In this document: one piece after another, positions 10,050 to 43,956 of the stretch
How the letters are laid out: every line of letters begins with the position of its first letter
How positions within the stretch are numbered: the stretch's first letter is position 1
Source: Rhizophagus irregularis
Taxonomy: Eukaryota
DNA length: 64,000 nt
Direction: 5' to 3'
NCBI RefSeq assembly: GCF_026210795.1
Contig: NC_089431.1
Location: 5,580,001 to 5,644,000, forward strand
Program-made: the position numbers and the translations under genes
The notes under the pieces: generated by a model
Seen by the model: only the letters and a program-made list of their open reading frames with translations
Told to the model about the DNA's origin: nothing
The model's database searches: none

Positions 10050-13000
10050 TCATCTGTATTTTCTGTCACTTTTTATTTCATGTAAATTATACATTTCATG
10101 TGCTTTATCAATATTTATTTCGGTTCCTACCCCACGTTCATAACAATATCCAAGATTATTTATTGAACGAATATGTCCCTTTTCAGCTGCTTTTTTATAA
10201 AATTCAAATGCCTTCACTTCATTTATCTCAGTTCCTATTCCACGTTCATAACAATATCCAATATCATATAACGCATTAGTATGACCTTTTTCAGCTACTT
10301 CTTTATACAATTCAAAAGCCTTGATCATATTTTCTTTAGTTCCCAATCCACATTTATAATAATTTCCAAGTTTATTTAATGAATCAATATGTCCCTTTTC
10401 CGCCGCTTCCTTATATAATTCAAGTGCTTTAATCACATTTTCTTCAGTTCCTAATCCATATTGATAACAATTTCCAAGCCTAGATATTGAATCAATATGA
10501 CCTCTCGTGGCTGCTTTTTCATAAAATTCAAATGCTTTATATTCATTCTTTTCGGTTCCTATCCCATATTCATAACTATATCCAATATCATTTATTGCAG
10601 CAATATGTCCCTTCTCTGCTGCGTTTTTATATGACTCAAACGCCCTAGCCTTATCTTTTTTGGTTCCTATTCCACATTCGTAACAATGTCCAAGATTGTA
10701 TATTGATTTAATATCATCTTTCATAGCGGCTATTTCATATAATTTAAATGCCTTCACTTCATTTTTTTCAGGCCCTATTCCATGTTCGTAACAATATCCA
10801 AGATTATATATAGAATCAATCTGACCTTTTTCAGCTGCTTCATTATATAGTTCAATTGCTTTAATTATATTTATTTCAGATCCTATTCCATATTGATAAC
10901 AATATCCAAGACTATTTATTGAAATGATATGGCCCCTTTCAGCCGCTTTTTTATATAATTCAAACGCTTTTAATTCATTTTTTTCAGTTCCTATTCCATA
11001 TTCATAACAATATCCAAGATTATAAATTGAATTAATCAGATCTTTTTTGGCTGCTTCTTCATACAATTCAAATGCCTTGATCTCATTTTTTTCAGTTCCG
11101 ATCCCATGTTGATAACAATATCCGAGATAATTTAATGAATTAATGTGACCTTTTTCAGCTGCTTTTTTATATAATTCAAATGCTTTTGTTTCGTCTTTTT
11201 CAGTGCCTATTCCGTAACGATAACAATATCCAAGGTTAAAGATTAAACTAATGTGACCTTTTTCAGCTGCTTCTTTATATAATTCAAATGTTTTGGTTTC
11301 ATTTTTTTCAGTTCCTATACCATATTCATAACAATATCCAAGATTATTAATTGAATTAATTTGACCCTTCTCAGCAGCATCTTTATATAAGTTAAATGCT
11401 TTTGTTTCATTCTTTTCAGTTCCTATTCCATGTTGATAACAATATCCAAGATTATTTATTGAAGTGAGATGATTATTTTTAGCCGCTTCTTCATACAATT
11501 CAAGTGCTTTAATCACATTTTTTTCAATTCCAATACCATGTTGATAACAATACCCAAGATTATATATTGAATTAATATGACCATTTTCAATTGCTTTTTC
11601 ATATAATTCAAATGCTTTTAATTCATTCTTTTCAGTTCCTATACCATATTGATAACAATAACCAAGTTGAAATATTGATTCAACAGAATCCTTTTCAGAG
11701 GATTCTTTATATAATTCAAATGTTTTAACTTTATCTTCTTTAATACCTATTCCATATTTATAAAAAATTGCTAATAAAAGATTAATATTTTGTAATTTAC
11801 TAGTATCCTTATTATTCAATAAGTAATTAAACATTTCAACCTCATTTTTGTTATTTGATATAATATTTTGTTTAACTATTTGAATATAATTTTCAATATT
11901 AATTTCTTTTTGTATAGAATTTTCATGTAAAAATAATAATTCTTCAATAATCTTTTTATAATTTTCATCATCATCATCATCATCATCATTTGTTATTGAA
12001 ATTTTTTCTGTTAACATATTATCATATTCTTCCATTAATTTATCAATTTTCGCTTGTAATGTAATATTAGTAATACCAGAACTTGATAAACTATTACTTG
12101 ATAAACTATTACTAATACCATTAATACCAAAATTATCACTATCATCAATAGTAAAATCATCATTAATTTCCGATAAAGTTTTAGTTTCACCTATTATATT
12201 CAAATTAATTAATTTTAATTCAGAAAATACTTGTTGCATATCCGGTCTATTATCTGGATTATCTTGCCAACATTCTGAAAAGGGTAACAAATAAAATATT
12301 TATTAGTACAGTATTAACATAATTAAAAAAAAAACAACATAATTTATTACCATTATATATTTTAATATAATCAATTGGTGTATCAGAAGTTGGAGTTTCC
12401 CTTTTTCCATTTAAAATTTCTAACATTAAAGTTGGTTTTTGAAAAGGTTTATCATAAGTTTCAAAAGGTTTTTTTCCTGATGATAACTCCCATAAAAGTA
12501 CTCCTACACTATATACATCAGATTTTTTGTTCGATTTATAATGATTCTTATTATTATCATCATTTTTTTGTTTTTTGAAATGTTGTGGATCAATATAAGG
12601 AATCATTCCAAATATATCTTTTGGTGAATTTGATACTTCAGCTAATCTACGTGAAAGTCCAAAATCTGCCAATTTAATTATATTCTGATGAATCAATATA
12701 TTATTTGAATGCTATTTATTTTGATAAAAATGAAATAATTAAATTAAGTATTAAATTTGAGTAAATTTTAAAATAATAAATAAATAAATTTCTTACTAGG
12801 TCACGATGAATAATATTCTTTTGATGTAAACATAAAACCGCATCAGCAATTTGTATTGCAAATTTTATTTTCATATCCCAATCTAATTTATTAAAATTCT
12901 TTTTTAAATAATTCCTTAATGTACCACTATCAGCGTATTCGAGAATTAGTAAGTAATCTGGATTCAAATCATCTTCATTATCTAAGTAAAAATAAAAAAT

Positions 13001-13560
13001 AAAAAATAAAATAAAATAAAATAAAATAAAATAAATAATAAAATAAATATTATTCGTAATATAACTTATAATTAAACGAAAAAAAAAAAGAAATTTTTTT
13101 AAAAAAAAATAAAAAATAGCTCGATATAAAATGTGTGAATTATCACATTTTTGAGACCATTACTTATATTACTCTTAAATTAATACTTACCGTTACTTTT
13201 TCTTTTAGTAATACCAAAAAATCTAATTATATTTGCATGAAATTGAGTTAAATGTAATAATTGTAACTAAAAAAAAAAGGAATAAGTCAGTCAATTTTTT
13301 TATGAAATATTATTATAAATTTTCTTTACCTCGTTAACAATTTCTATAATACAACTATCAGTTCTAAAAGATTTTAATGCAATAACAGTATTGGAACTTT
13401 CCCAATTTGCTCTATACACATTACTAAAAGCTCCAGAACCTATACGTCTAATATTTTGAAATTCTTTATATTCATAATAATTTATGTAACATTTTGAAAT
13501 TCCATCCTCAATCCATTGAATCCATTTATCCGAATCAGTACTATTATGTTTACTATCCAT
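10050..13560 (-). CDS. Tyrosine-kinase-like kinase with 16 C-terminal Sel1-like repeats (5 exons)
   Basis: Exons about 13560-13330, 13266-13191, 12981-12797, 12711-12351 and 12274-10050 with GT-AG introns. Motifs GSGAFS, IALK, HRDL/HSNN, DFG, SDVYSVG. Sixteen 36-aa LGYCYxxGIGTEK repeats. Confidence 0.93.
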
Positions 13561-13756
13561 TATATAAAAAAATGAATGAAATGAAAAAAATATGTTGGGT
13601 GTCGAGTGATGTGCATTTGTCAACATGCGAACAAAATTATTCATAAATGTTTTCGTGTTACGATACGAATGACGATCATTAATTAAAAAATTACGACAAA
13701 TAATAATAATCGGGGTGTAACTAGCGGACTGACAAAAAAAAAAAAAATTTTTTTTG

Positions 13757-13860
13757 CATTCATATCGTAAAATTTATTTTGAATTCATATCGTAAAATTT
13801 ATTTTGAATTCATCTCGTGAATTTTTTTTTTTTAAATTCGATCTCGTAAAATTTTTTTTT
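13757..13860. repeat. Short tandem repeat ATTCATATCGTAAAATTTATTTTGA, about 4 degenerate copies
   Basis: Seen directly, upstream of the kinase-Sel1 gene. Confidence 0.7.
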
Positions 13861-19409: not shown

Positions 19410-20208
19410 AGAGCAAATACCATGGGCGTTCTTGAATAGACTATATAACGCAACCAGATGAATTCGTCCCAATTGGAAGTCCCGTGTTATGGTCCATCTT
19501 AATCTTTAATTTTGGTTATACGCGGAAATTGAAAATCCTGTTATTTAATCTTACGCTAATATCCGTTTTCTTTGAAAAAAAAAAAAAAGATTGAGAAGTC
19601 TTCGATAATATCGAAGAACAAATTTATGGACAATCAGCATTTTCATTGAAAGGTGATAGTGATAATAATGAAAGCCATCGAATTAAAAAATAAAAAAGTA
19701 AAAGTTTAACGCCCTAAAAGTAGAGTCATTTAGTGTAGCATTCAACATTTTTGTCCGGTGAATTCTCAATTTCGACTACAAACATGCGAAAATTTTAGCA
19801 TTTATAGATTTAAATTCAAACGAGTTTAATATATCATACCTCCACCTATAATTCAATGTGAAAATTTGAAAACTATAAATCTAGAAAGCATTCTTTTACG
19901 GGTCCAATACTGGTCCAATTCCAGCTGAATTGTCCAAATTACAATTAACCGATTTACTATACGTAACTGGAGAAATTTCGATGATATAATTTTAAACAGA
20001 TTGTATGTTGTTTAATAATAATAATATTATTATTATTGTATAATAAATAAATATATACAATTTAATCTTTTCTAGGAGATTGGCTGTTAATGCGTTGACT
20101 GGTTCTATACCGGATAATATCTGCCAAAGGAATCATTCATTTTGTGACCTACGACTAACCCAATTTACGTCCTTTCCTGCAACATGTAACGTGTGTACAC
20201 TTGAATAA
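19410..20208 (+). pseudogene. Degraded leucine-rich-repeat gene with plant-type LxxNxLT/SGxIP repeats
   Basis: Fragments FNILSGEF, DLNSNEF..IPPPIIQCENLKT and TGPIPAELSKLQLTDL. Last exon 20076-20208 reads RLAVNALTGSIPDNICQRN...CTLE*. Several frameshifts and stops. Confidence 0.7.
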
Positions 20209-23879: not shown

Positions 23880-24875
23880 TAATGAATCGTCAGATCGTCT
23901 ACAACAACTGCTATACGCACCGTAACTACGATTATTGTAGATGGCACATCTTTCATCTATTACACGACTCAAAATATAATTTTCTATTCTATCACATTCA
24001 AAAGGATCCAAGAATATCGTTACTGTCTTTTACTTTAACAATTGTTACTGTGCGGGGTTTATTATCACAAATTTGATGAAATTTTTCCCGTAAATGTCCA
24101 TCACGAGATGCGCGAAATAATAATTTGAATTCATATGGAGAACTCAAATTGTCTGTGATTCCTAATCTATCGATCCATTTTAAAATTAATTCAGCATGTT
24201 GATAATTTATAATTTTTGAATCAATAGTTTTTTTACTTTCCCTATTTGGTCATACCATATTCTGATTTATCACTTGGCTTGCTGTTAGGATCAAAAATGT
24301 TACTAAATTTTTATAAAAATCTGGAAATATTTTTTCATAAGGGAACAAAAATTCTTTAGAGGTTAAATTGTAGAATTCGATAAATGGAATAAATCGTTGT
24401 AAGGTAGTATTCTTTAAATTATTAAAATCATCTTGAGAACAAATTACAAGGTCAGAGGGAAGTTCAGGATTTTGAGCAAGACCTGTTCCCAAATTTGAAT
24501 TTCTCTCATTGTAAGGTTATCACTTTGAATAATTGTAACTAAAAGTTTTTCTGGAATTGAAGTTCTAAGAAAGTATCATTCTCAAAACTTGTTTGATATA
24601 TCAAATTAAAATTTTGTTCCATTCAATTTGTATTACTTTCAATCAAATGAATACAATTAACTAGTTCTTGGAGACTAAGTTCGCTAGCAGAAATTAAGAT
24701 TTTAATTATATCCTGAGTATTATATTCCTTTAAAGCATAAGAAAGTATAGTAGAAAGTTTTCTGCCATAAATATACCTAAAATACAAACATACATTATTA
24801 TGAATAATATAAGTTTATAAATTATTATATTAAGATTAGTTGAAATATTTCGGGTGTAATATTTGGTAATTTACT
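23880..24875 (-). pseudogene. BTB-BACK-TLDc pseudogene, close copy of the 40728-42177 gene
   Basis: High visible nucleotide identity to 40855-41960, with many deletions and frameshifts. Most of exon 1 is missing. Confidence 0.9.
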
Positions 24876-25139: not shown

Positions 25140-25920
25140 CCTTAAGCCGCATGTCCAAAGAATCGCCTAAAAAAGAATAAAAACAAATCATTAGTAAAAC
25201 ATTTAGCTAAAGAAATAAATTAATAAGAAAAAAAAATATTTTTTTCGAAAGTCCTTACCGAGACAATACGCGACCAGGGACATAACCGTCTAAAAAAAAG
25301 AGAAAATTGAAATGTTAGTAAAATGTTTCACTAAAGAAATAAATTAAAAAAATATTTTTTTTGGAAGCTCTTACCGAAATAATACGTGCTCAAGGACCGG
25401 CCGTCTAAAAAAAAAAGAGGAAACCGAAACGTTAGTAAAACATTTCATTGCTGTAAATAAAAAGAACAAGAAACTCACTCACAAAATTCAACGCGTCAAA
25501 GGGAAAAAGAACTGTTAGCAAAATTTGTTGAAAAAATTTCATTTTATTTGCTGAAATCCAACCTTTCCGGCCATCCAGAAAATAAGAAAACGAAATTTGA
25601 GAAAATGTTTCGTTAAAGAATTAATTTGAAAAAAAATCTAGTTCACCAAAATTCAAAATATGAAATCCAAGTGTTCAGGCTTGCCTAAATAAAAAAGATA
25701 AAATTTGTTACGTTAACATATATTTAGTTAGGATAAATAAATTAAAATAGTGAAAAACTTGCCAAAAACGAAATCTCATGTTTCCAAAGAGACCCGAAGA
25801 ACCGCCTTAAAAAAAATGAAAATGAACTGTTAGTAGTTGTTCATTAAAATATTAAAGAAAAATAAATTAAAAACTTACAAAATATCGCGTCCTGAAGACT
25901 GAAGGAGCCACCTAAAAAGG
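25140..25920 (-). other. Cluster of short (about 30-45 nt) related exon-like units
   Basis: Repeated poly-T+AG acceptor, short GC-richer unit and GTAAG/GTGA/GCAAG donor, with CTAA branch motifs. Examples: 25289-25259, 25404-25375, 25684-25646, 25911-25879. Confidence 0.55.
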
Positions 25921-27097: not shown

Positions 27098-30000
27098 CTA
27101 ATTTTCATCTGTTTTAATATTTAAATAATTAAATAAATAAAAATTAATTTCACATAAATAATTTGCAAAATCACTTTTTTTATATACTAAATTACATACC
27201 TAATGACCCCAGATCTTTAATTATATAATCATTCAAATCTTCAGCTTCACTTACTAGCATTTCATTTGCTTTTACACTAGTTTGTGAATCTTTACTTTCA
27301 AGAATTTCATTCAATTTTTTACTAGTAAAACCAAGTAAGCGACTTGTATAACATGCTTGTGGATGTGATTCAGTAACAAGATTGTTATGTCCAATTGTTG
27401 CATTTACAAATTCCATAACATTGCATTTTAATTCTTCACTAATTGTATTACCATAAGGAAGGAAAATCCATTTTCCAATAATATCTAAAACTTCTTTAGA
27501 AGATGGCCTCTCTAATGGATCCTCATTCCAACATTTTTTCATCAAATCTACATAACATTGTGGAGTATTTTCAATAATTTCAGGACGTTCACCTTTACAA
27601 ATACTTAAACTAAGTTGAATATCATGTGCTCTATTATTAAATGGTGGTACCCCAGATGTAAATTCCCACATAATCATAGAAAAACTATATATATCACTAG
27701 CTGGAGTATAAGGTTTGCCTCTTAAAACTTCAGGAGCCATAAATGGTATAACACCATAAATATCATACTTTTCCACAAACGATTTTACAGGTTGACATAA
27801 TCCTAAATCACTAATATAAATTTTACTTTCATTATGATTTAAAATATTACCATCATGAAAATCACAATGAATAAGGTTTTGTTCATGTATCAAACAAAGT
27901 CCAGACATTATTTGATACAACATATATAACTTTTGATTCCAACCAACTTTGATTATTGTTGTTAAATTTTCTCTTAAATTACCTTCGTTTGAATAATCCA
28001 TTACTGCCAAATATTTCAAAGTATTTGGATCTTCTGTAAATCCATATAAGTTAATAACATTATTTGAACCTAAACAACTTAAATGATATTTCCACTGTAA
28101 AAAATAAAAATAAATATATTAGTATAAATAAATTATAATTTAAACAATTTAAATTAAATAAAATAAATAATATGTATCATACTTCAATTAAATATTCATT
28201 TATATTTTCATTCGAATAATTATGACATTTAAGAATTACTTCTTTATTTCCATTATCACTTAACCAATTAGCTTTGTATATAATACCAAATCCTCCTTTA
28301 TTAAGATTTTTAACATTTTTAAATTTATTATAAGGAATCCATTTTAGATTATTTTCAATAATAAATTCATTCATAATTGCATTTCTACATCTATAATTAA
28401 AATAATTAAGTTGTATGTTTTTTTTTAAAAAAAAAAATATTATTAACACTTACCCTAAATTTAAATAGAAATTTAATAAAATATAAAACTTAGTTTTATA
28501 TGTTAATATGTAGTAATCTATAATTTACAACTTACTGCCATCATTATGATCATTTAATAATCCTTTTGCAGACTTGGTACTATCGTTACCAACTAAATTA
28601 CCAAATAATTTTTTAAATAAAAAAGTCAGTCAATTAAATTGCAAATAAGTATCACAAATAAATATAAAAATAATTTATAACTTACAAGCTTAAACAAATT
28701 ATCAGGTAAATTTTTGAATGAAAAACTTTAGCTAAATTATACATAAATATTATACCAAAGTATAATAATAATAAAATTAAATAAGCAACTTACCCTCTAT
28801 AATATTAAATAAAATTTGATGAATAATTTGATTAGTTTATATTATATATAAATAATATCTGGTATATAATAATTATAACTTACTTCCTATATTATTAAAT
28901 AATTAAATAAAGAATTTAATTAGTCCAAATATATGTCATAAATATATAATCAAATTAAATAAATCACTTACGAACTATATAATTTTTTTAAATGAAAAAT
29001 TTAGTTTAAAATATATGTAAATATGTATACATGTCAACTACCAACTCGTCCAGCAGATGTGTACATTAAAAAAATATGCAAATATCATATGAATAAATTA
29101 AATAAAAACTTACAAACTACATTGTTAAATAATTTTAAATAAACAATTTGATTAGTTCAATATACGTTATAAATATCATATAACTAGGTATACTGGTATA
29201 GTGAAATTAAATAAATAACTTACTTCCTGTATTATTATTAATATTAAACAATTTAGTTTAATTATTGTTTAAATTATATATAATAAAAAAGAATTAAAAA
29301 AATAACTTACTTCCTATATTTTTTTAAAAAAATAATTGGTAGGTTTATAATTAATGTATTATTAAATTTATATAAGTAATAATAAAATAAATTGATAACT
29401 TACGATCTAATTAAATAAAGAATTCAGTTAGTAAATAATATGTAAATATCATATAAATAAATAAAAAACTCGTAGAATTAAATAACTTACTCCCTATATA
29501 TAATATATTATTAAATGATTTGTTTGTTTAAACAAAATATTTAGTTCAAATTATATATAAATAATAATCATAAATGTATAATGATAGATTTAAATAAATA
29601 ATTTATAACTTACGAGCTATATAAATCATTAATTTTTAAATAATGAATTTAGTTTAAATTATATTTAAATATTATATAAAATATGCATATTAGAATTAAA
29701 GTACAAGCTAAAATAAATTATTAAATAATTTTAAAATAAATAATTAGTTAGTTTGAATGTTATAAATATATAATAATAGAATTGAATAAATAACCTATAA
29801 CTTACCAACTAAAATAATTCACATTAAATAATTTAAATTATATATATAAGTATCATCATATAAAATTGTGATAAACTAAAAAAATAATTCATAACTTACA
29901 AACTAAATAAAATAAATTGTCGATTTTTTAATAAAGAATTTAGTTAGATTAAATCAAATGTAAACATTGTATAATAAAATTGAATAAATAACTTACACTC

Positions 30001-30885
30001 TATATTATTAAATAAAGAATTTAGTTATTAATATGTAAATATTGTATAAATATATAATAATGAAATTAAATAAATAACTTACCCCCTATATTATTAATAA
30101 TTTTTTAAATAAAAATTTAGTTAGTTTAAACTATATAAAAATATCATAAATAAACAATAATAGATTAAATAAATGTAACTTACAATCTAAAATAAATTAC
30201 CAAATATTTGTTAATTTATATTATATAAAATAACAAGAAACATAGATGATATATAACTTACGCCCTGTGGTATTATTAATTATTAATTATTAGATGTATA
30301 AAAATATGGTTGTACAAATTAAATATATCACTTACAATCTAATTATTTAAATAAAGAATATAATTATTTTGAATTATATGTTATGTTAAATAAAAATTTA
30401 GTTATCGAATATTAAAATTTAAAATACATTAAAAATAAAAAACTGATAACTTACTAACTATAGCATTTATTAATCATTAAATGAATTATTTAGTTATGTA
30501 AAAATTAAAAAAAAATAAGTAATACATCAAATAATTCAATAAATGTCCAAATTGTCAGGTAGCCTATCAACTTACAAGCTAAATTATTAATTATTAAAAT
30601 ATTTTTAAGTAAACAAGAATAATAATTAGTTAAATTATATATGAATAGTATAATAGAAATTAAGAAACTATTGATTTATAAATGCATTCAAATTATTTAC
30701 AAATATTGTAAATATTATTTAGTAATTAAACAAAATTTCGTCTTGTTTAGAATATTAATATTTACCTCTAAATTTCTTAGTACTACTTGAAACTAGTTTT
30801 ATTAAATTGCAAATTTGCTTAGAATTGAATCTTAAGTTGTATTAAATATTTATGCTATTTTACCTTCATCATTATTATAATCCAT
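27098..30885 (-). CDS. Tyrosine-kinase-like kinase with microexon-encoded N-terminus
   Basis: Kinase exons 28390-28183 (KWIPY, GGFG, VILK), 28094-27200 (HCDFHDGN, SDLG, APE, SDIYS) and 27108-27098. Predicted 5' exons: 30885-30864 (ATG), twenty 3-nt exons, a 57-nt exon 28592-28536 and a 1-nt exon at 28454. The kinase domain is secure; the 5' model is predicted from splice signals. Confidence 0.85.
28686..30578 (-). repeat. Tandem array of 20 intron + 3-nt microexon units
   Basis: On the + strand ACTTAC-NNN-CT (minus strand AG|NNN|GTAAGT; one donor is GTACTT) recurs every 74-142 bp. Triplets start at 28686, 28794, 28884, 28972, 29114, 29224, 29311, 29404, 29491, 29614, 29705, 29806, 29900, 29997, 30083, 30184, 30262, 30336, 30455 and 30576. 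Confidence 0.9.
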
Positions 30886-31543
30886 TATACTATGTAATTA
30901 TATCTAAAAGACAGGGTGTATAATGTTTTCTCTATTTATGCAAAATGCAGATGCCAAGTACAGGTTTCAGATGTATTATGCATCATGAGCACTTATTGTA
31001 CGACAAACAAATTTTGATAAAAATGTATACTCTTCTGCTGATCATCATGACCATTTTTCACATGACTTCATAAAACAATATACTTCTTTTCTTCGAAAAA
31101 CTGGTTCAAATACTCTTAATACTGTTTAGTAGAGGGTTCACCAATTGTCAAAATTTTTCAAACTTCATAACGGAATGTTTTAGCTTTCAATATCTTGTTG
31201 TCTTGAGTAGTTTTGCAACGGGAAACACTTAGAATAGTCCCCAAGTGGCACTGGAGACGGGGTTACTTTGAAACATTGGCCTTTGGAAGTTGGGATGCTA
31301 GCGCTTTGGAGTCAACGTGGGTTTTTGGAGGGAGGTCTGGCGGACGAAGAGGAGCGTAAGCAAGAAGGTATACTTTGGAGTAGTGTGTTGGTGGAAGGGT
31401 TAGGAGGCGGTTAGCTTTTTCTGGTGGTTGTTTTGGTTTGGTGCTTTTTACCCTTTCCTTTTTCTTTTCCTTCGTTTTGTTTTTTTTTCGTCTTCGTTTT
31501 TGGTTTGGCGCAGTCATTTTTTGTGCGCGTGCCCCTTAAGGTG

Positions 31544-32206
31544 TATGGAAAGCCGTCCTTGACAAAAGGTTGATGTCCAAACATCATGAAATATAATATT
31601 TAGACATCATGATGGTATGTCTAGACATCATGTTTGATATATGTAGGATGATGTTTATGGAAAGCCATCCTTGACAAAAGGTTGATGTCCAAACATCATG
31701 AAATATAATATTTAGACATCATGATGGTATGTCTAAACATCATGTTTGATATATGTAGGATGATGTTTGTACATTATTTAACATGATGTGAAAGACATCA
31801 ACCGACATGATGTCTAGACATCATGCTGATCAAATTACCAAATATAGTATATTTATGAGTTACACAAAATAAAATTTACTATATTTGGTAACATGATGTC
31901 TAAGACATCATGTCGGTTGATGCTTGAGCATCATGTTGAATGATGTACAAACATTATTCTATATATATCAAAAATGATGTCTAGACATCATGCTGATCAA
32001 ATTACCAAATATAGTATATTTATGAGTTACACAAAATAAAATTTACTATATTTGGTAACATGATATCTAAGACATCATGTCGGTTGATGCTTGAGCATCA
32101 TGTTAAATGATATACAAACATTATTCTACATATATAAACATGATGTCTAGACATTATCCAACATGATGTCTGGATATCAACCTTTTGTCAAGGACGGCTT
32201 TCCATA
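31544..32206. mobile_element. Non-autonomous TIR element (MITE/foldback) with internal duplications
   Basis: Perfect 31-bp inverted ends TATGGAAAGCCGTCCTTGACAAAAGGTTGAT / ATCAACCTTTTGTCAAGGACGGCTTTCCATA. The left end is duplicated at about 31656. Tandem duplication of about 165 bp (about 31808-32140). Many ACATCATG/CATGATGT motifs. Confidence 0.88.
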
Positions 32207-32835
32207 AAGTTGGGGTACAAAAGAGTGACCTATTCGTTTTAGGCAAGACTTTTCAAGCATAGGGTACCAATCAAATTCAATTCTTGCGGATATGCCGATA
32301 TGCCGATCAACATTAGGGAGGCCAATCACACCAAGTCACGTGTAAAAGAAGACCCGATCTGTGGTCGCACAGTACATTGGAAGATGTGGAAACAAGGTTG
32401 AAAGCGAGCGGTATTGGTTTGCAAGAAGCGTAATTAAAGACCGCAGATTTCGCCGATGGAAGGTTTTACCTTGGGTTCATGGGGTATGTACGGAGGGGAT
32501 TAATCTGTCCTTTTAATTAGTTAATAGTCTATATAGATCTCAAATATCCTTGGGTTTTTTAGCGATCTTGCTTTTCCCCGAATTTGTAATCTAAGTAGTT
32601 ATTAATTTAATTTTTTTTTTGTGTAATATAGTGTTAGAGTTGTATATTAGTACGGGGTACTTTATCATTCATCCATGAGTCAGTAATGGGACTACAACTT
32701 CACCGTATGGGGGTAAAGGTTTTGGTATGAGGGGGGCGCTAGACTTTGTCTTTCACCAAACTCTTGATTATTTTATAAACTTTGTATGTTCTTTATCATA
32801 TGAATAATAAAGTATTTCAGTTTACCAAAAAAAAA
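32207..32835 (+). mobile_element. Probable 3' remnant of a non-LTR retrotransposon
   Basis: GC-richer degenerate coding-like stretch, then a UTR-like region ending AATAATAAA...A-tail at about 32826-32835. Family assignment is from pattern only. Confidence 0.45.
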
Positions 32836-42177: not shown

Positions 42178-43956
42178 TTTTTATAATTTTTATCGCTAGC
42201 GAAAGAAATAAGAAAGAATCAAAAGAATCAACCCAAATTTGTATATTTCTAGCCTTATATAATTGAACTACTACATTCTGTGCAACATAAATTTATTTAA
42301 TGCACGTGATGAAACGCGCAGTATTATTACGAAAATCGATTTATTTTTTTAATTCAATCATTGTATGTTGTCGAATATAACAAACTAAATTACACGACAT
42401 GCGAAATTATCTTTTATGACTAATTAATTTAATAACTAAGGATTTATATTGAAAAACTATCTTTTGTAACGAAAAGATTTATATCTTTTACAGAAACTTG
42501 TGCGTAAAAAACCAAATTTTCAGTATAAATAATAAAAAATTATTTGCTTCTACCGTTCTAACGAGGAAATACGTTGGTACTTTTTTTTTAAAAAAAAATA
42601 ATCGTTTTACCTATAATAGACGAACTTTACTTTTATTGTCTTTCTCTACCCAAATAATTTCGTATTATAGTAAAATAAATTATATAATATCAATATAATG
42701 ATATTTAGATTATTTCATATATATAATTTTGAATTATGTAACGTGTGGTTGGCTGCGTCCGATCTATTCTACATTATTTATAGTCTTGATCGTTTGTTGG
42801 TTACTAATTATATAATTGGTTAGACTGAAGGTCCTGAGATCGAAGGGTTTATTAAACTTGGCGGCGATATCATTCATTAAATTTATTAATTTTTTTAATA
42901 AATAATTTGTTTAGTAATTGTCAATTTTAAGCGTGTAATCTTTTTTAATAAATAATATTTGTTTTTTTAATTTTTGATTAAATGATCCGGTAGATATTGT
43001 ATATAAATTTTTTTTTTTGAATAATTTCTTAATGATTTTTTATATAAAATAATGTTATAGATTTTTTTGTAATCATAAAATTTTTTAATAAATCAAACTA
43101 TATTTCTTAAACTAAAAATAATTTTGTGGGAATTTTCCACCACCCATTAAAAATTTATTTGAAATTCTAGTAGTTCAGATCCTGCTGGACTGGACCGCTT
43201 GGGCCAGCATTATTTTAGATCCAGGTTGGGCTAGATTTCAAAATATGGGTTTCTCTTACTCTCCGCATAATATTGATGGTTTTGTAAACTTTAAATATAT
43301 CTACATAATTGAAAAATTGATATTTATATTACATCTGTATAGGTTAGTTTAATTGTGATATTTTTTTTTTGTTTCTGTTTTTTCTCAGTTCTTTGGTTTA
43401 AAAATATAGTTATCATCTAATTATTTTATTTTTTATTTCTTTCATTAATTTTTTATATACTAATACTATAAAAGTTTCAAATTAAATTACACAGTATGCT
43501 CTCTTTTTCCATATCTTATTTTTAATAATTTTTTTCGTACGTTTATATCTTTTAAAATGAAAATTACGGTATCACTTCTGTTAGTAAATTGCATCTTGCT
43601 CTTGATCTTCAGGTGCACCTTTGTATATCTCTTTCTTGATCTTTACGTGCTTGATCTTTGGGTATTTTTGTTTAATCTTACGCGCTATTTGATCACATTT
43701 CTTTATTCTCTTTTATGGTCAATCTTTATTTGCTTTAAAATTAATAAATTAAACAATAATTATAAATATTAGCCAATTAAAATTCAAAATTGTAGTAAAT
43801 CGCGTGTATTAATATGGGTAACTCAAATATTACAAATTTCATGTTAAACAGAACAATCCGCTAATAACAACTTAGACTCATTAAAAAACTACTGTATACT
43901 TAAAATATTTTTTTTGAAATAGGGAATCTAAAATACTAAAAATTTTGATTAAAGTA

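Follow-up and report, generated by a model that had tools for sequence, protein, structure and literature searches.

A putative array of twenty three-nucleotide coding microexons in front of a kinase of Rhizophagus irregularis

In a 64,000-nucleotide stretch of Rhizophagus irregularis DNA (hereafter the window), we found a kinase gene on the minus strand that carries 20 AG/NNN/GT units, running from position 30578 down to 28686 ahead of its kinase exons. On balance, we lean towards reading these units as coding microexons that would be spliced in order into one transcript, giving the kinase a variable N-terminal segment that is diversified mainly in the DNA.

The array is far beyond chance. 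Its units are separated by introns of 71-139 nt, the donor is GTAAGT at 19 of the 20 and GTACTT at the remaining one, and a CTRA motif is present in 17 of the 20 introns upstream of the units. In these respects, and in the order of the triplets, the sequence-only reading of this DNA that we followed up was accurate. All 19 GTAAG donors between 28600 and 30700 had AG exactly 3 nt upstream; a further AG at 1 nt occurred in two of them and none at any other offset from 0 to 14, against a background AG frequency of 0.029. In the rest of the window AG stood 3 nt upstream at 4 of 108 GTRAG sites. A pattern spanning two units matched six times in the window, always inside the array, and not once in 100 shuffles. 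The spacing of the units also points to a possible decayed unit between exon 2 and the array (Table 1). Isolated AG/N/GTRAG and AG/NNN/GTRAG sites at 19555 and 43683-43685 (minus strand) may be single microexons or chance matches.

Table 1. Features of the proposed gene model, in window coordinates
Feature	Position	Strand	Basis
Exon 1, coding part (ATG, 22 nt, ends in phase 1, donor GTAAAA)	30864..30885	minus	sequence and frame test
Likely exon 2 (27 nt, phase 1 to phase 1, acceptor CTAG, donor GTAAAT)	30766..30792	minus	frame test and motif; splicing predicted
Possible decayed unit in 187-nt intron	30700..30704	minus	GTAAAT donor without AG 3 nt upstream
Twenty putative three-base microexons	28686..30578	minus	sequence, pattern counts, stop-avoidance tests
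First bases of units 1-10	30578, 30457, 30338, 30264, 30186, 30085, 29999, 29902, 29808, 29707	minus	
First bases of units 11-20	29616, 29493, 29406, 29313, 29226, 29116, 28974, 28886, 28796, 28688	minus	
57-nt exon	28536..28592	minus	open in phase 1, closed in phase 0
1-nt exon (AG/G/GTAAGT)	28454..28454	minus	flanking introns 81 and 63 nt; splicing predicted
First kinase exon (N-lobe, glycine loop, catalytic lysine)	28183..28390	minus	part of P0001
Second kinase exon, to the stop codon	27192..28094	minus	100% identical to P0001; PF07714, E 1.9e-41

Joining exon 1, the 20 triplets, the 57-nt exon, the 1-nt exon and the two kinase exons produced one open frame of 416 residues, which contains the public model P0001 whole. 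This chain had been put forward as stop-free and in frame with the kinase, and so it is, but a likely second exon of 27 nt had been missed; with it, the model reads as a single frame of 425 residues. Only one of the eight acceptors before the donor at 30765 keeps the frame, giving the 27-nt exon (30792-30766) behind a first intron of 71 nt. The exon codes for an SSSTK motif, which the R. clarus model P0106 also shows immediately behind its first exon. Exon 1, in turn, is similar to the very beginning of paralog models, P0106 and P0041 among them. We consider it likely that the 27-nt exon belongs in the gene, where it would explain the donor at 30765. A 2-nt exon (30767-30766) that would produce a hydrophobic phase-0 peptide was rejected, because it leads to a stop at residue 41 and the 27-nt exon accounts for the donor. 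Just upstream of exon 1 there is an in-frame stop together with a possible acceptor at 30904. At the other end of the array, the kinase exon begins in phase 2, and the 1-nt exon takes the frame there from phase 1; the frame closes when either the 1-nt or the 57-nt exon is left out.

The downstream exons correspond to the R. irregularis kinase model P0001 at 100% identity. P0001 matched kinase families only, with PF07714/PF00069 at 142.5 and 131.4 bits, above the curated cut-off, and its catalytic motifs come in order (GGFG at 27, the lysine motif at 47, HCDFH at 140, DLG at 160 and APE at 184). The model has 1197 relatives at E <= 0.001. Many relatives (P0165-P0210) consist of up to 11 repeats of a Cys4 knuckle plus the start of a kinase N-lobe, with no whole kinase in each repeat. 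Public models of the array gene begin within the first kinase exon and lack the 61 upstream residues of the proposed model; they omit the array, as had been anticipated. By eye, a stretch rich in Gly, Ile, Leu, Glu and Met was seen before the kinase in 5 of 120 public paralog models (P0026, P0033, P0050, P0073 and P0081). These five residues are the vocabulary of the array triplets when read in phase 0, and the stretches are candidate arrays that may have been translated in the wrong frame. A search for transcript-derived proteins with an array segment recognised none.

We scanned metagenome contigs for the pattern, covering 7 of 64 parts, and obtained 110 loci. After a spacing filter, 15 AT-rich and 17 higher-GC loci were kept by eye; the 78 dropped were simple repeats, uniform repeats (for example, L009), short or mixed runs, and L047, a near copy of L064. 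Unit spacing was near 95-100 nt in the AT-rich loci and near 65-95 nt in the higher-GC loci. The sequence-only reading had suggested such a scan and had asked which families lie downstream. A kinase, 45-67% identical to P0001, stood directly after the array in 3 of the 15 AT-rich loci (L004, L013 and L043), and NACHT or ankyrin sequences lay beside some of the higher-GC arrays. Composition and the match to P0001 suggest that the three kinase loci come from Glomeromycota. L004 contains the whole 5' end, with a first exon, 18 units and the kinase exon. In all three, the end of the array falls, by eye, where many related kinases have a Cys4 knuckle with a variable loop, as judged among 94 of 150 matches listed.

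Among the higher-GC loci, phase-0 arrays of about 30 three-base units each follow hydrolase-NACHT-ankyrin exons in L018 (4214-6904), follow a NACHT domain in L028 (4427-6715) and lie between ankyrin exons in L105 (220-2696). These are nank-like genes in other fungi, and the unit flanks in L018 are 91-97% alike while the triplets differ. L047 and L064 (minus strand, about 33 units) hold a long phase-0 array with identical triplets in both loci; the exons before it look like those of a small GTPase-like protein, and the one exon scanned gave no Pfam match. Further short contigs (L016, L020, L035, L044, L045, L051, L052, L103 and L110) carry between 9 and 32 three-base units in an array, and no host gene was recognised on them.

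The exons that flank the arrays place the triplets across codon boundaries. By eye, L004, L007, L014 and L088 have an upstream exon ending in phase 1, and the kinase exon starts in phase 1 in all three loci that contain it (L004, L013 and L043). With such flanks, two bases of each triplet would complete one codon and its last base would open another, and each residue would be spelled by two adjoining exons. The units are not codons in register, and phase 0 closes the frame in the 57-nt exon.

Stop codons were then counted in the window and the 15 AT-rich loci, which together comprise 18 runs, 140 units and 122 adjacent joins, with units shuffled within runs as the null; these loci are mutually related, not independent, and were chosen by eye. 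One of the 140 called units, the final one in L043, coincides with the beginning of the kinase exon, and its join is a genuine junction. We found stops in 0 of 122 adjacent phase-1 joins, compared with 6.3 expected from the shuffles, and in 20 of 122 when the same joins were read in phase 2. T preceded none of the 24 joins at risk of a stop but 42 of the 98 others (Fisher p 1e-5). When any one source was left out, avoidance stayed at P <= 0.006; without the window there were stops in 0 of 103 joins versus 4.2 expected (P 0.006), and the window array alone was borderline, with 5.6% of shuffles stop-free (P 0.056). Phase 0 of the AT-rich set is equally stop-free (0 of 140 triplets), so that the phase assignment rests on the flanking exons. 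The higher-GC arrays read in phase 0, with 0 stops in 310 triplets, and phase 1 closes 35 of 282 of their joins. Even this is a mild deficit relative to the 44.0 found in shuffles (P 0.0065), which in the wrong phase indicates that duplication order effects can bias the shuffle test. The earlier proposal of coding microexons in phase with the kinase gains support from the phase 1 flanks of the related loci and the stop-free adjacent joins.

Read in phase 1, the encoded residues are 14% Trp and 11% Arg; Asp, Asn, Phe and Tyr are also frequent. Trp takes 17 of the 122 codons, compared with 7.4 in shuffles and with 1.4% in the kinase proteins compared, whereas Gly takes 1 of 122 versus 6.4 in shuffles. 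Trp codons need a T before a GG triplet, and their enrichment arises only through adjacent order. Both the excess of Trp and the deficit of Gly are as predicted by selection on the full ordered string. A make-up rich in Trp, Arg and aromatic residues is typical of binding surfaces.

The 20 array introns are related to each other (mean z 2.3, with 29% of 190 pairs above 3), in contrast to three other introns of the kinase gene (z 0.2-0.7). Because of this relatedness, the intron-plus-triplet unit appears to have spread long ago by duplication, in agreement with the tandem origin first suggested. To compare divergence, we used relatives with younger copies and picked partner units on their distant flanks. 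Two comparisons of related units showed differences in 51 of 96 and 6 of 27 triplet positions, compared with 56 of 384 and 5 of 108 positions of the neighbouring intron; the figures for distant pairs were 113 of 174 and 193 of 696. The triplets diverge faster than their flanks in relatives of the window array, in a contrast that splice-site constraint inflates. The units of the window array itself include no close pairs, and the fast divergence is seen in the relatives only.

Sequencing reads of four runs on 27100-31300 were mostly paralog-derived, and no listed joint or loose end touches the array. Reads at least 99% alike numbered 50 of 1865, 74 of 2163, 73 of 2290 and 29 of 2761 per run. 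Three of the four runs reached a depth of about 2 where the bin covers the 57-nt exon, a very weak signal.

Several other features of the window were recorded. At 25140-25920 (minus strand), upstream of what is left of a BTB-type gene (decayed, about 23900-24800), lies a run of exon-like segments of 30-55 nt with canonical signals, and two of the segments fall within a 116-bp tandem duplication (25230-25447); the run is likely to be a spliced 5' leader. Upstream of the kinase gene, 31544-32154 holds two tandem repeats (112 bp x2 and 167 bp x2) with ends at about 31545-31570 and 32180-32208 that, by eye, are similar and in inverted orientation, possibly marking a small DNA transposon. A further kinase gene at 10050-13773 (minus strand) is fused to about 15 Sel1-like repeats of 36 residues (108-bp period), and no microexon array was found in front of it.

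The units could instead act as a splicing diversifier like that described for truffle nank genes, in which many unit combinations would give a repertoire of N-terminal peptides from one gene and products with stops would be discarded. We judge this chief rival rather unlikely, although it has points in its favour. As all units are 3 nt, any subset stays in frame, and 661,876 of the 1,048,576 subsets of window units (63%) are stop-free, so that frequent skipping would be cheap; near-identical signals at each unit could also compete. Single skips create a stop in only 2 of 20 cases in the window array, and single internal skips in 0-2 cases per array in five arrays of at least 11 units. The sequence-only reading was therefore right that units can be skipped without frameshift and that some skips make stops. 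Its suggestion of combinatorial skipping as the main function is not supported so far: skip-one joins closed in 5 of 104 cases, with 5.4 expected, and show no sign of protection, and skip-two joins, with 6 of 86 versus 4.6, also ran at the chance rate. Chance-rate stops in skip joins, set against none in adjacent joins, suggest that selection favours the full ordered string over free skipping, and the dependence of the Trp enrichment on adjacent order points the same way. Phase 1 is, moreover, worse for free skipping than the stop-free phase 0 of the NACHT/ankyrin arrays. Stop avoidance at adjacent joins is nevertheless compatible with frequent skipping, and ordered inclusion and a truffle-like splicing repertoire can coexist.

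It is also conceivable, but in our estimation improbable, that the family uses arrays while the copy here is mostly skipped or near silent, the kinase being made from an array-less transcript or starting at the ATG further downstream with which the public model begins. With all 20 units skipped the frame is still open, at 396 residues; the array is present in none of the five members of the P0001 cluster, none of which extends upstream of the first kinase exon; few reads are at least 99% alike; and one unit may have decayed. However, AG and GT are intact at all 20 units despite far-diverged introns, the kinase motifs are intact, and 21 joins, exon 2 and the 1-nt exon hold one frame. Stop avoidance that is specific to a frame, splice signals and 3-nt spacing kept where the remainder has diverged, and arrays at the same position before the kinase exon in three other loci all speak against a decayed non-coding tandem repeat that merely mimics splice sites. 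This last explanation seems to us very unlikely, even though many metagenome matches of the pattern were simple repeats and the introns share a common ancestry.

Passages in four papers (PMC4986451, PMC10197012, PMC13449251 and PMC3689799), which credit Iotti et al. 2012, state that the NACHT-ankyrin (nank) genes of Tuber melanosporum contain multiple, or tens of, codon-sized microexons of 3 bp that are alternatively spliced; the architecture is thus not new. The R. irregularis array resembles those described there in its long run of 3-nt exons with canonical splice sites, in belonging to an expanded family and in occurring in a mycorrhizal fungus, and for nank genes too the arrays were proposed to diversify a recognition surface. 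It is nank-like in layout but not a member: its host is a kinase rather than a NACHT-ankyrin NLR, the array is N-terminal, the lineage is Glomeromycota and the codons would be split, in contrast to the phase 0 of the NACHT/ankyrin arrays from metagenome contigs. Alternative splicing is reported for Tuber, whereas the sequence evidence here favours ordered inclusion. Schistosome micro-exon genes and animal neural microexons are very short symmetric exons that tune protein surfaces; they come in differing lengths or occur one at a time with long introns on either side, whereas here all units are 3 nt and the introns 71-139 nt. The gene also joins the known tyrosine-kinase-like kinases (PF07714) of R. 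irregularis, its kinase exons being those of a public model. No report of such arrays in Glomeromycota was found among the literature listings searched. The main text of PMC10234402, in which 2,533 R. irregularis kinases are counted, has neither 'microexon' nor 'micro-exon', a passage of PMC4219462 notes the kinase expansion, and in a passage of PMC4014442 microexons appear solely as a mapping option. What is new is the Glomeromycota kinase family, the split-codon phase and the evidence on order; the 3-nt microexon architecture itself was already known.

Under the ordered inclusion that we favour, short introns with strong donors would be removed successively and every triplet would join the growing upstream exon. 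The default product would contain all 20 units, each residue taking its first base from one exon and the next two from the following exon, and the result would be a variable N-terminal segment, rich in Trp, Arg and aromatic residues, on a tyrosine-kinase-like kinase. Because a whole unit can be gained or lost without frameshift, variety would lie chiefly in the DNA, where paralogs and alleles would come to differ as intron-plus-triplet units are duplicated, lost or rapidly substituted, and some skipping may come on top of ordered inclusion. The segment is a putative binding or specificity module that would set what each kinase paralog recognises.

These results would widen the range of 3-nt exon arrays beyond a single NLR family of truffles, to include kinases in a fungal lineage that branched off early. 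The stop-codon test tells ordered inclusion from free skipping using DNA only. For work on the spliceosome, a transcript that includes twenty 3-nt exons and another of 1 nt would be an extreme example. A hidden, fast-evolving N-terminal cassette offers a testable answer to the question why Glomeromycota keep thousands of kinases; paralogs would then differ by a recognition peptide that annotation misses or misframes. More speculatively, and with considerable doubt on our part, arbuscular mycorrhizal fungi may possess a repertoire of receptor-like kinases in which an overlapping exon code specifies the recognition peptide, with two neighbouring 3-nt exons per residue. If so, duplicating, deleting or skipping one unit would rewrite two residues at once, and DNA shuffling together with splicing would give an asexual, multinucleate symbiont a very large set of Trp/Arg-rich sensors that is invisible to every current gene model.
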